Positions 55-3,271 of a DNA stretch of 9,637 nt are shown here, one piece after another. Where the stretch lies: IMG/VR virus record IMGVR_UViG_2529293148_000011; one strand, 5' to 3'. The notes under the pieces were generated by a model. The model was given only the letters and a program-made list of their open reading frames with translations. It did no database searches and had not been told where the DNA came from. The stretch's first letter is position 1. Every line of letters starts with the position of its first letter. This DNA is from a virus. Lineage: Duplodnaviria; Heunggongvirae; Uroviricota; Caudoviricetes. Both the position numbers and the translations under genes were made by a program.

Positions 55-324
55 ATGAGCGAACAGTACCTGATAACGCTCGACGAGTGGAAACCAAAAC
101 GGTTCAGTCTCCCAATAACAAACACTACCCTGGTGAAATACGGAAAACTAGGATACATCGTTCCAAGACCACAAAAAATTCGTGGGCGTTGGCTGATAGA
201 TCGCCGGGCAGTATTTGTTGGACCTGGTGAAACGGGAATTGCGCCGGAAATTCATACTGGCGATGATGATGCACTGAAGGAGATTTTAACTCATGTCACC
301 GAGGCCACGAAAAAACAGCACTGA
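55..324 (+). CDS. xis: Excisionase (Xis-like, lambda/e14 type)
   Basis: ATG at 55 preceded by GGAG at 43-46. N-terminus MSEQYLITLDEW resembles lambda Xis MYLTLQEW. Small basic protein directly upstream of int, overlapping it by 32 nt as in lambda. The frame is open back to the window edge, so a longer upstream start (track uses GTG at 46) cannot be excluded. Confidence 0.75.
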   Translation: MSEQYLITLDEWKPKRFSLPITNTTLVKYGKLGYIVPRPQKIRGRWLIDRRAVFVGPGETGIAPEIHTGDDDALKEILTHVTEATKKQH

Positions 325-1411
325 CGTAACCGGTCTTTACGAAAAGTTTGATCGCAGAACTGGCAGGGTTTACTACCAGTATAAAAACCCTGTGACTGGA
401 AAATTTCACGGTCTCGGAACAGACAAAGGCAAAGCAGAAAAAATCGCTTCCACAGCCAATCAGCGAATAGCTGCAGCAGAAGCTGAATATTTCATGCGCA
501 AAATTGATGAAAGTCCGTCAGCAACAAAACGTCGGGGCATCAGATTAAAGGCATGGGTTGATCGATATCTGAAAATACAGGACGCGCGACTGAAAAATGG
601 AGATATTGCAGCTACAACTCACAAAGAAAAAACTCGAATGGCTGCATACCTGGTTTCCCGTCTGGGAAACCACCCATTGAAAGAACTGGAAGTAAGAGAC
701 TTTGCATTAATACTGGATGAGTGGCTGGATAAAGACATGGTCAGCACAGCGAGAGTAAATCGTGGATTATGGGTTGATATTTATAAAGAAGCACAGCATG
801 CAGGGGAAGTTCCTCCTGGATGGAATCCTCCGGAGGCTACCCGTAAACCGATCCCTAAAGTAACCAGAGCCAGGCTCACCATGGAAGACTGGCAAAAAAT
901 TTACAATGCAACGCCTGAAAAACACTTTATCCGTAACGCAATGCTTCTTGCGATTGTTACTGGTCAGCGCCGTGATGACATTTGCCACATGCGTTTTTCA
1001 GATGTGTGGAACGAACACTTGCATATCACCCAGGGAAAAACCGGAATGCGTCTGGCGTTACCGCTTACACTACGCTGTGATGCCATTGGGATAACGTTAA
1101 AAGAAGTTATTGATGGGTGCCGAGACAGAATATTAAGTCCATATCTAATCCATAGTCGGCACCAGAAACAACCGAAGCCGATGAGTAAAGACAACCTGAG
1201 CGACTACTTTGCCAAAGCACGGGATCTGGCTGGGATAATTCCACCAGCAGGAAAAACTCCGCCAACATTTCATGAACAACGCTCTCTATCAGAACGGCTG
1301 TACCGTGCACAGGGTATCGATACAAAAACATTACTAGGGCATAAAGTCCAGGCAACCACCGATCGCTATAACGATACTCGAGGTCAGGAATGGGTTAAGT
1401 TGGTTATTTGA
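293..1411 (+). CDS. int: Tyrosine site-specific integrase, lambda Int family
   Basis: 372 aa. C-terminus HEQRSLSERLYRAQGIDTKTLLGHKVQATTDRYNDTRGQEWVKLVI parallels the lambda Int catalytic region (H-x-x-R, LLGH, Y) as recalled. AAGGAG lies upstream of the ATG at 293. Resembles e14 IntE from memory. Confidence 0.95.
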   Translation: MSPRPRKNSTDVTGLYEKFDRRTGRVYYQYKNPVTGKFHGLGTDKGKAEKIASTANQRIAAAEAEYFMRKIDESPSATKRRGIRLKAWVDRYLKIQDARLKNGDIAATTHKEKTRMAAYLVSRLGNHPLKELEVRDFALILDEWLDKDMVSTARVNRGLWVDIYKEAQHAGEVPPGWNPPEATRKPIPKVTRARLTMEDWQKIYNATPEKHFIRNAMLLAIVTGQRRDDICHMRFSDVWNEHLHITQGKTGMRLALPLTLRCDAIGITLKEVIDGCRDRILSPYLIHSRHQKQPKPMSKDNLSDYFAKARDLAGIIPPAGKTPPTFHEQRSLSERLYRAQGIDTKTLLGHKVQATTDRYNDTRGQEWVKLVI

Positions 1412-1474
1412 CAAACACCATATGGAATATCCGTCACCATCTCAGGAAAAAAGTGTTGTAAAATGCGTGGCCTA

Positions 1475-1510
1475 GTTTTGGGGAAACGTTTTGGAGAGAT
1501 TTTGGAGAAA
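1475..1510 (+). repeat. Three tandem direct repeats of GTTTTGGRGA (1475-1484, 1488-1497, 1500-1510); candidate integrase arm-type sites
   Basis: Read directly from the sequence, period 12-13 bp, non-coding, about 65 bp downstream of the int stop. Confidence 0.4.
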
Positions 1511-1629
1511 GGAAAAAATTGAATAAATTCAAAATCCTGAAAGTGTCCCGCCTTATGAATAAGAAGGTGAGCGAATTAGATGATTAATCCTTTATATTCA
1601 ATGCATTAAGTTTGTTTTTGAGTGGTTTT

Positions 1630-1647
1630 GCCGTTTAATGTAACGGC
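1630..1647. other. Inverted repeat GCCGTT-TAATGT-AACGGC; candidate att core
   Basis: Perfect 6-bp arms around a 6-bp AT-rich spacer, in an AT-rich region between the two clusters of GTTTTGGAGA motifs. The geometry resembles tyrosine-recombinase core sites. Confidence 0.3.
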
Positions 1648-1683
1648 GTTATAGATCCTATCAAAATCAATCAATTCCGTTCT

Positions 1684-1710
1684 GGTTTTGGAGAAAGATT
1701 TTTCGAGAGC
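1684..1710 (+). repeat. Fourth GTTTTGGAGAAAG motif copy plus a degenerate copy; candidate arm-type site on the other side of the core
   Basis: GGTTTTGGAGAAAG at 1684-1697 is identical to the third unit of the 1475-1510 cluster, in the same orientation. Confidence 0.35.
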
Positions 1711-1752
1711 TTCGGTCTTTAACTAAAACTGATTGCGTATAATCCCAATACC

Positions 1753-1782
1753 CCTCCCCGACTATCTGAATGGTCGGGGAGG
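1753..1782 (-). terminator. GC-rich hairpin (10-bp perfect stem CCTCCCCGAC/GTCGGGGAGG, 10-nt loop) downstream of the tfa remnant
   Basis: Lies 37 nt 3' of the tfa-remnant stop on the - strand. No clean U-tract follows, so it may be a decayed terminator or an RNA processing site. Confidence 0.35.
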
Positions 1783-1818
1783 CACTTCAAGCACAAAATA
1801 TCATCCCTGCGCCGTTGA

Positions 1819-2049
1819 TTACTCTGCAGGTGAAGTCGGCCACTCAATATCAGGTGCAGTTGATGTATCAACACGATTCAACAATACCCGATATTTATTC
1901 CATGCCTCCAGCAACGATCTTTCTTCCTCCTTTGCGATTTCCAGATCTACAGCATCCTGCAGTGGCGCAATATACTCACTGAATTCCTGGGTGTAGAACT
2001 GTGTGGTGACGGTCTTCCAGCCATTCGGCTCCTGCTGTATCGAAGCATA
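1819..2049 (-). pseudogene. tfa: Tail fibre assembly protein (lambda Tfa type), 3' fragment without a start
   Basis: The - strand translates as ...[53 protein letters not shown]-stop, matching the conserved lambda/e14 Tfa C-terminus. The frame is closed by TAG at 2050-2052 with no ATG or GTG, so only about 77 codons remain. Not in the ORF track because it has no start. Confidence 0.7.
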
Positions 2050-2141
2050 CTAGGCTATTTCAATATCGCTATGCTGCGGCAGCATTTAACCCCTTGTAAT
2101 TCATCGCCATAATTGATTTAATTCACAAACAAAACTATAAC

Positions 2142-2810
2142 ATGGTGAAATTAATGAAAAAAAACACAGATGATGGGGCTAAAATTTACACACCACTTAC
2201 CCTAAAGCTTTATGACTGGTGGGTTTTGGGAGTATCAAATCGGCTTGCATGGGGATGTCCTACAAAGGAATACCTTCTTCCACACTTTCTGGAACATTTA
2301 GGTAACAACCATCTGGATATTGGTGTTGGAACTGGGTTTTACCTTACTCACGTACCTGAGAGTAGTCTGATATCTTTAATGGATTTGAACGAAGCTAGCC
2401 TGAACGCGGCATCTACAAGGGCTGGGGAATCAAAAATTAAACATAAAATTAGCCATGATGTTTTTGAACCTTATCCCGCGGCGTTACATGGTCAATTTGA
2501 TTCCATTTCCATGTTTTACCTTCTTCACTGCCTGCCTGGAAATATATCTACAAAAAGCTGTGTAATACGCAATGCGGCGCAGGCCTTAACTGACGATGGA
2601 ACTCTATACGGAGCCACAATTCTTGGCGATGGAGTTGTGCACAATAGCTTCGGTCAAAAACTGATGCGCATTTACAATCAGAAAGGCATCTTTTCAAACA
2701 CAAAAGATTCCGAAGAAGGCTTAACGCATATACTCTCAGAGCATTTCGAGAATGTTAAAACCAAGGTTCAAGGTACTGTAGTAATGTTTTCCGCTTCAGG
2801 GAAAAAATAG
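2142..2810 (+). CDS. Class I SAM-dependent methyltransferase (small-molecule type), likely cargo/moron gene
   Basis: Motif I LDIGVGTG and a post-II-like FDSISMFYLLHCLP. No DPPY/NPPY or PCQ DNA-methyltransferase motifs. The ATG at 2154 has a better SD (GGTGA at 2144-2148) than the ATG at 2142. May correspond to e14 YmfD, but that is an unverified recollection. Confidence 0.8.
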   Translation: MVKLMKKNTDDGAKIYTPLTLKLYDWWVLGVSNRLAWGCPTKEYLLPHFLEHLGNNHLDIGVGTGFYLTHVPESSLISLMDLNEASLNAASTRAGESKIKHKISHDVFEPYPAALHGQFDSISMFYLLHCLPGNISTKSCVIRNAAQALTDDGTLYGATILGDGVVHNSFGQKLMRIYNQKGIFSNTKDSEEGLTHILSEHFENVKTKVQGTVVMFSASGKK

Positions 2811-2817
2811 CATCCAA

Positions 2818-2850
2818 CCGCAGCACGTTCTTGCTTAAGACGTGCTGCGG
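2818..2850 (-). terminator. Hairpin (10-bp stem CCGCAGCACG/CGTGCTGCGG, 13-nt loop) between the convergent methyltransferase gene and the pin/tfa remnant
   Basis: Lies 15 nt 3' of the - strand remnant stop. On the - strand a T-run follows after 10 nt (TTGGATGCTATTTTTT). Confidence 0.4.
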
Positions 2851-2864
2851 CATAATCCCAATGA

Positions 2865-3191
2865 TTACTCCATGACAGGGTTCGTAGGCCACTCAATATC
2901 AGGTGCAGTTGATGTATCAACACGATTCAGCAACACCCGATACTTTTTCCAGGCTTCCACCACCAGCACGACAAGATGCCGCATACAGTGACCCAGTCAG
3001 TCCAGTTTCCAGACAACCAGTGCGTCACCTTTTTGAAGGCGCTTTAAAGCACGTTTTAATCCAGGTCGGCCTGTCCTTGTTCCGCTTTATTTATCTTCAA
3101 ATATTTGTTCACATCCTGCACAAACAAGAGCGTTTCGTTGCAGGTCTGTATTCTGGTCATTTGTTGATACCCTTACATAACCAATCAGCAC
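2865..3191 (-). pseudogene. pin: Serine DNA invertase (Pin/Gin/Hin/Cin family) N-terminal remnant fused to a tfa 3' end; two in-frame stops
   Basis: From GTG at 3191..3189 (SD GGGAGA upstream) the - strand reads VLIGYVRVSTNDQNTDLQRNALVCAGCEQIFEDK[84 protein letters not shown]. The first ~77 codons match the invertase N-terminus including the catalytic-serine region. Stops are TAA at 3089..3087 and TGA at 2999..2997. The last ~31 codons are a Tfa C-terminus. Confidence 0.75.
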
Positions 3192-3245
3192 ACTGAATCT
3201 CCCGTCCAAAAGCGCAAATCATGCCATGCAGGCCGGATACGGCCA

Positions 3246-3271
3246 TTATCTAAAACCTCGGTTTACAGGAA
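3246..3271. other. Din-family invertase crossover site (gix/pix/hix-like): TTATCTAAAACC TC GGTTTACAGGAA
   Basis: Two 12-bp half-sites, TTATCnAAAACC and GGTTTACAGGAA (reverse complement TTCCTGTAAACC), around a 2-bp core; this fits gix as recalled. It sits 55 bp upstream of the pin start and abuts the orphan fibre segment. Confidence 0.6.

Follow-up and report, generated by a model that had tools for sequence, protein, structure and literature searches.

A probable lambda-like attP in a lambdoid phage that inserts at the 3' end of potB in Escherichia coli

Genes and sequence elements at the locus

The window analyzed here is a stretch of 9,637 nucleotides from a Caudoviricetes virus (IMG/VR record IMGVR_UViG_2529293148_000011), and our subject is the putative phage attachment site (attP) that lies in it directly 3' of the excisionase and integrase genes, xis and int. 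The int gene (293–1411, plus strand) encodes a heterobivalent tyrosine integrase (Int) of the lambda family, 372 amino acids long. Its residues 1–64 match the arm-binding domain Arm-DNA-bind_1 in Pfam (PF09003; E 4e-21, 75 bits against a cutoff of 22), the catalytic domain Phage_integrase (PF00589) is also present, and the protein is 35% identical to lambda Int over its full length (351 aligned residues, E 5e-61). The start of int is overlapped by xis (55–324, plus strand), the product of which matches the Pfam family Exc (PF07825; E 7.8e-5, 23.0 bits, exactly at the curated cutoff) and is annotated at the same position in RefSeq lysogens as the excisionase WP_000003742.1. The two Int domains, the overlap of xis with the start of int and the transcription of int towards attP are all found in lambda as well.

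The initial annotation of the window pointed to three tandem GTTTTGGRGA units downstream of int, and these are present at 1475–1484, 1488–1497 and 1499–1508, the third starting with A. They are followed by the AT-rich spacer of ∼120 bp that it described (1511–1629, 30% G+C compared with 50% for the whole window) and by the inverted repeat GCCGTT-TAATGT-AACGGC (1630–1647, with halves at 1630–1635 and 1642–1647). One further unit, which had been placed at 1684–1697, is present as GTTTTGGAGAAAG, but it starts one position later (1685–1697). The region had been interpreted as an intact attP, with the repeats as arm-type sites and the inverted repeat as the core.

Core position and limits of strand exchange

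In a megablast search of 5426 complete E. coli genomes with positions 1–2200 as the query, most matches ended at 1569, with potC next. Matches to the whole window that come from the tail side begin at 1556, and the gene before them is potB. With the attachment region alone as the query (1412–1720), matches were obtained in 1633 of the 5426 genomes, at a median of 2 places per genome; almost all of the matches listed covered either 1412–1569 or 1556–1720, the latter lying under the potB annotation. A subset of the int-side matches starts at 1448 and originates from diverged int regions. The attachment region was contiguous in only 11 of the genomes, and the potB–potC junction was uninterrupted in 3800. 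Alignment of the window attP with the int-side junction of lysogen 700481, the tail-side junction of E1433 and the empty bacterial site (attB) of K-12 revealed a common core of 14 bp, TGAATAAGAAGGTG (1556–1569), which is identical in all four sequences and lies within the 3' end of potB. The true core of attP is therefore 1556–1569, which is 45 bp past the third repeat and ∼75 bp to the left of the inverted repeat. For the proposed core, but not for the attP as a whole, this is the outcome that the initial annotation named as refuting, namely junctions of related prophages that lie elsewhere.

Two positions delimit the exchange within this core. Position 1555 is A in attP and C in attB. Position 1563 is G in every attP copy that we have seen, namely those of the window, FORC_028, SMN152SH1 and three IMG/VR contigs. 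Two independent lysogens, 700481 with a window-type P arm and O157:H7 SS52 with a different P arm, both carry A at 1563 in the int/potC-side junction and G in the potB-side junction. The empty site rebuilt from the flanks of 700481, with A at 1563, was matched at 100% identity across 112 bp in many genomes, that of ATCC 8739 among them, so A is a host allele. By this partition of A and G, 1563 falls to the P-arm side of the exchange, which, together with the difference at 1555, indicates that strand exchange is confined to TGAATAA (1556–1562), the predicted overlap region of 7 bp. The overlap used by lambda Int is 7 bp long.

The overlap region stands in the context CGCCTT-A-TGAATAA-G-AAGGTG (1549–1569, plus strand). 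The pattern CGCCTT-N9-AAGGTG suggests that the flanking hexamers are core-type Int sites, with CGCCTT (1549–1554) as the analogue of C' on the int side and AAGGTG (1564–1569), which is invariant in an alignment of six sequences from E. coli, Citrobacter and Pantoea, as the analogue of C on the P-arm side. In one viral contig (L087) the two hexamers form a perfect inverted repeat, CACCTT-N9-AAGGTG. The equivalent in the lambda record is CAGCTT-T-TTTATAC-T-AAGTTG, i.e. CAGCTT-N9-AAGTTG, so hexamer inverted repeats 9 bp apart surround the predicted 7-bp overlap here and the 7-bp overlap in lambda, whereas the core sequences themselves differ (TGAATAAGAAGGTG here, GCTTTTTTATACTAA in lambda).

The P' and P arms

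The TTTTGGRGA motif occurs four times on both strands of the 9637 bases, always within 1476–1694, where 0.26 matches would be expected, and none of 200 shuffled sequences reached four matches. A repeat finder returned a single family whose units start 13, 11 and 186 bp apart, and the repeats differ in sequence from the core hexamers. We measured their distances from the center of the overlap, which is 1559 here and position 333 of the lambda record (locus L006). The three units of the P' arm, all on the plus strand, are ATTTTGGAGA (1499–1508, P'1 analogue) at 55.5 bp, GTTTTGGAGA (1488–1497, P'2 analogue) at 66.5 bp and GTTTTGGGGA (1475–1484, P'3 analogue) at 79.5 bp, compared with 57, 67.5 and 78 bp for P'1–P'3 of lambda. 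The unit in the P arm, GTTTTGGAGA (1685–1694, plus strand, P1 analogue), has the orientation of the P' sites and lies 130.5 bp from the center; lambda P1 lies at 138.5 bp (−138.5) in the same relative orientation. A possible degenerate second unit of the P arm, ATTTTTCGAGA (1698–1708, plus strand), begins 13 bp past the previous one, as in the P' array. The arms differ from those of lambda in the motif, which is TTTTGGRGA here and (C/A)AGTCACTAT in lambda, and in the position of the P' array, which begins 64 bp past the int stop codon here and overlaps the int stop in lambda.

Relatives of this site were found next to potC in three species of Citrobacter and in Pantoea (five loci from a contig scan, which cover the P' arm only, except for a remnant in C. 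pasteurii). Their integrases are 68–76% identical to that of the window (44% for the truncated copy of C. pasteurii). The spacing of 13 and 11 bp is unchanged in all of these arrays; in the six-sequence alignment the two inner units are invariant (6/6) and the TTTTGG of the outermost unit is invariant across the three genera. Among the same relatives, the stretch from the int stop codon to the array varies by insertions, deletions and substitutions; amid it, upstream of the arm repeats, a block TTGTAAAAT.CG (1455–1467) shows no change across E. coli, Citrobacter and Pantoea. This block includes a −10-like hexamer, TAAAAT, directed at potC in lysogens, at which a promoter scan made no call, and the start at 1448 of matches from the diverged int regions of other E. 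coli prophages lies near it. In some relatives, SMN152SH1 (positions 1673–2321 of locus L092) among them, genes for a DUF2335 protein and a hypothetical protein are inserted before the arm repeats, after the stop codon of int, so that attP is moved ∼900 bp from int. The Citrobacter remnant, in C. pasteurii CIP 55.13 (positions 137–3010 of locus L011), is a segment of only ∼2.85 kb between potB and potC in which the junctions on both sides, the three P' repeats and a truncated int are preserved; the P arm of this remnant has no arm-type site and is truncated before any.

On the other side of the core, the comparison could be made with a second version of the P arm (type 2), which is intact in SMN152SH1 and forms the potB-side junction of O157:H7 SS52. 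In both of these the type-2 arm keeps TTTTGGAGAA at the same distance, and its identity to the window is 80% over 1681–1705 as opposed to 32% over 1610–1659; of the unit 1698–1708 it keeps only the T run. The conservation of the repeats across genera and across arm variants supports a function, and their number, spacing and orientation are also as expected of the arm-type sites proposed in the initial annotation. They are thus plausible integrase arm sites, to which Int would bind. As to an analogue of the lambda P2 site, the best candidates seen by eye, GGTTTTGCCG (1625–1634) and CTATCAAAA (∼1658–1666), match at only 5–7 of 9–10 positions and are not claimed.

Three elements resembling sites for integration host factor (IHF) accompany the repeats. 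The first (1514–1532, minus strand), an analogue of H' ∼39 bp from the overlap center, includes the palindrome TTGAATAAATTCAA (1519–1532), and the block AAAA.TTGA.TA..TTCAA in this region is invariant across the three genera. Its minus strand, ATTCAATTTTTTC, has 2 mismatches to the IHF consensus WATCAANNNNTTR, and the Citrobacter equivalent, AATCAACTTTTTC, has 1. The second, ATTCAATGCATTA (1596–1608, plus strand), an analogue of H2 43 bp from the center, has 1 mismatch; the block is 77% conserved in the type-2 P arm, where a one-mismatch match is also present. The third, AATCAATCAATTC (1665–1677, plus strand), an analogue of H1 112 bp from the center, likewise has 1 mismatch, and the type-2 arm has a perfect match to the consensus, AATCAAACAGTTG, aligned to it. 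The corresponding positions in lambda are +38 for H', −42 for H2 and −120 for H1, and the strands match. All three are candidates only, at which IHF may bind. No Xis or Fis site was identifiable between the core and the arm sites.

The segment that in lambda contains X1, X2, F and P2 is occupied here by the inverted repeat 1630–1647, which is not conserved between the arm variants. It stands out less from chance than the TTTTGGRGA repeats do. A perfect 6-bp inverted repeat with a loop of 3–10 nt arises in 55% of dinucleotide shuffles of 1470–1710, but one with at least four G/C pairs in only 1.6%, and the RNA fold of 1615–1665 has a z-score of −3.3. At the same place, within the stretch that is 32% identical, the inverted repeat of the type-2 arm is another and a longer one, GGCATGC-N20-GCATGCC, which is also carried by the related P arm of the C. 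pasteurii remnant. The inverted repeats of the two arms are at the same distance beyond the crossover, and the excisionase WP_000003742.1 is identical in lysogens of both P-arm types. The inverted repeat 1630–1647 was considered as an intrinsic terminator and rejected as such, since a terminator scan of 1350–2200 called no site on either strand and, by eye, no T run follows the repeat on either strand.

Since the two arms are only 32% identical in this segment, serve the same Xis and a near-identical Int, and each has its own hairpin-capable repeat, the middle of the P arm (∼1610–1660) may hold an element that is specified by structure and not by sequence, although we regard this suggestion as unlikely. 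The 3' end of the int transcript comes from this segment, which integration severs from int, so the segment could be a sib-like retroregulatory hairpin located in attP. Alternatively, it could be a site recognized by its shape by a dimeric accessory factor. Just outside the P arm, ∼210 bp past the core, there is a perfect 13-bp G+C-rich hairpin, CCTCCCCGACTAT-CTGA-ATGGTCGGGGAGG (1753–1782), with a plus-strand RNA fold of −24.2 kcal/mol (z = −5.2), at the place of sib/tI in lambda. Neither strand has a T run after the hairpin, and it was not called by the terminator scan; it could act on int as a sib-like element or mark where the minus-strand tail-fiber transcript ends.

Interpretation of the site and its insertion into potB

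We conclude that positions 1475–1710 are very probably an intact attP of a lambdoid phage, and that the lambda-type integrase encoded at 293–1411 inserts this phage into the last codons of potB. In this interpretation the plus strand would run from P' to P: three arm-type sites (G/A)TTTTGGRGA (1475–1508), an IHF-like element (∼1514–1532), the core (1549–1569), a substitute for the 3' end of potB (1570–1587), an IHF-like element (1596–1608), a variable segment with the inverted repeat (1630–1647), an IHF-like element (1665–1677) and one clear arm-type site of the P arm (1685–1694). Judged by sequence, this architecture appears to match that of lambda attP almost point for point, whereas the recognition sequences differ. 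Int would bind the arm repeats and would bridge arm and core sites, the former through its N-terminal arm-binding domain and the latter through its core-binding and catalytic domains, with the arms bent by IHF. Strand exchange with potB, which has the same heptamer, would take place across TGAATAA. Two junctions are predicted as products, one on the int side, which adjoins potC, and one on the tail side, at which potB is restored and the C-terminus of its product slightly altered. The initial annotation was right in taking the site for an attP and not for an attL or attR, since P', core and P are contiguous and directly 3' of xis and an int that encodes a lambda-type protein with an arm-binding domain.

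Several observations do not fit this interpretation well. The B half-site of attB, CGTTTG, agrees poorly with the proposed core-type consensus, and the second unit of the P arm (1698–1708) is weak. The inverted P2-type arm site of lambda has no clear counterpart, none having been found by eye in 1610–1684. The IHF consensus is a weak one, and matches to it occur at chance frequency throughout the window, so the candidate at 1596–1608 rests on its position and conservation. The model does not explain why the segments equivalent to the Xis/Fis region are unrelated in the two arm types and yet paired with an identical Xis. Finally, neither the core nor the repeat sequences were found in a literature search of incomplete coverage.

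The contiguous arrangement of P', core and P could also be an internal junction of a chromosomal array of prophages, either a tandem lysogen or a recombinant cluster; we regard this as unlikely, if with a real chance of being right. The 11 complete E. coli chromosomes with an intact P'-core-P arrangement speak for it and mean that such an arrangement is not proof of a free phage. In FORC_028 (NZ_CP012693.1, ∼2,797,000–2,854,600) the intact attP lies between two modules of a chromosomal prophage cluster, with the tail/effector end of the first module on one side and the int end of the following module on the other, and in SMN152SH1 a hybrid site combines a window-type P' arm with a type-2 P arm. 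On one side of the FORC_028 site is a tail end with espM2, espW and nleG, disrupted by IS600, which belongs to a prophage with a different integrase at its far end, and on the other side is the int-xis-exo end of the next prophage. In strain 97-3250, a relative of FORC_028, the genome has no att-related place other than the intact attP. The 11 contiguous copies are, however, to be compared with 1633 genomes with split sites. Of the relatives in IMG/VR, moreover, almost all of the 80 loci end 3 bp after int, and among the five informative contigs, which extend past int, three have an intact attP.

The genes on both sides also fit one coherent lambdoid genome. The minus strand beyond attP encodes the C-terminal fragment of a tail-fiber-assembly protein (1822–1995, positions 77–131 of the Caudo_TAP profile), a DUF4376 tail-fiber-assembly protein, a side tail fiber, Lom and a C-terminal part of J. 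The order across attP, xis-int-attP-tfa'-methyltransferase-tfa-stf-lom-J, is the circular (vegetative) order of a lambdoid phage, and the window is collinear with the single E1433 prophage rejoined at its ends, which favors a phage or a circular form. The claim that the element is not integrated through attP in this window is correct, with the 11 chromosomes that carry an intact attP as a caveat. The 1822–1995 fragment is stranded beside attP, and in several lysogens the same fragment is annotated, next to the att site, as a pseudogene. It is overlapped by a full-length match to the Rfam family RF02111 (IS009; 1859–2062, minus strand, 113.5 bits against a gathering score of 117, E 3e-27), which was the only match at E ≤ 1 in a search of 1350–2200, with none in the att region. 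The methyltransferase gene (2142–2810, plus strand; class I, S-adenosylmethionine-dependent, Pfam Methyltransf_12/23/25) is a cargo gene between attP and the tail-fiber genes, common to phages ev243 and 2G7b and to the E1433 and 700481 prophages. In ON470612.1 (Escherichia phage vB_EcoS-640R1, 'partial genome') potC, potD, ymfA and ycfZ adjoin int, and this bacterial flank past the int-side junction marks the record as a prophage excerpt and not a packaged genome.

With attP and its core as described, the TTTTGGRGA repeats could still be something other than arm sites of Int: they might bind Xis, a host factor or a repressor, or might act after integration, for example on the expression of potCD. 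In all lysogens the three-repeat array stays beside potC, and its transcription runs in the direction of potC, the block TTGTAAAAT.CG just upstream of it is conserved, and the motif is unlike the arm consensus of lambda. The well-scoring arm-binding domain of Int, however, needs a target, and in both arms copy number, spacing, distance from the core and orientation match the arm sites of lambda within a few bp. A copy in the P arm would, moreover, be unnecessary for a signal directed at potC, yet it is conserved. We therefore consider this explanation improbable.

That the inverted repeat 1630–1647 is itself the strand-exchange core, with the repeats as flanking arms, has a negligible probability: the inverted repeat is real, its G+C-rich stems are rare in such an AT-rich stretch and it sits between the repeat copies, but in the 1633 E. 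coli genomes both types of junction break at 1556–1569 and none at 1630–1647, the repeat stays wholly in the phage part of the potB-side junction, nothing similar to it is present in the empty attB and, in O157:H7 prophages at the same attB, unrelated sequence replaces it in the P arm, so that the junction data refute it as the core.

For the attP with its core at 1556–1569, insertion has direct consequences in the host. The exchange point is inside potB, 16–22 bp ahead of the start codon of potC. The target lies in the 3' end of a gene within an operon, whereas lambda attB lies between gal and bio, and unlike lambda the phage of the window carries a replacement gene end. This is the phage-borne potB 3' end AGC GAA TTA GAT GAT TAA (1570–1587, plus strand), through which the last three residues of PotB, ELE, are changed to SELDD (...LNKKVSELDD* in lysogens, ...LNKKVELE* at the empty site). 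The type-2 P arm provides the end ...KKGNRNR* and the C. pasteurii remnant ...KKVSDIDS*. The potB gene is annotated as intact in lysogens. The potC gene retains its own start and immediate upstream bases, and the prophage separates it from the operon promoter. As int and potC are co-oriented in lysogens, read-through from the int side could in principle feed potCD.

The locus itself is known, since potC has been listed as an insertion site of Shiga-toxin (Stx) phages, and the phages found there share one integrase type (PMC8065619, PMC9453080). These potC-locus lambdoid prophages, the Stx-converting ones included, have the same insertion locus and integrase type as the phage of the window; the two papers give the name of the locus only. 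The main text of Steyert 2012 has no detail on potC or att, and the potB/potC locus is not treated in a paper on prophages within prophages (PMC8112680). Since the exchange point is in potB, 'potC' names the neighboring gene and not the gene that is cut.

Conceptually, the site adds nothing beyond the lambda paradigm, and the main value of the analysis is in the corrected core and the base-level map. A map that is precise to the base is useful for the delimitation of prophages, for PCR detection of occupied and empty sites and of excised circles, and for integration vectors. Prophages with the int of the window occur at the potB/potC site in O157:H7, O26 and many commensal strains. This integrase and its att site are among the commonest in E. 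coli, with a prophage at the site in ∼30% of complete genomes, including those of O157:H7 and other Shiga-toxin strains, and for all of these the usual 'potC' label is to be corrected: the site is inside potB, the phage repairs potB, and potCD are cut off from the operon promoter.

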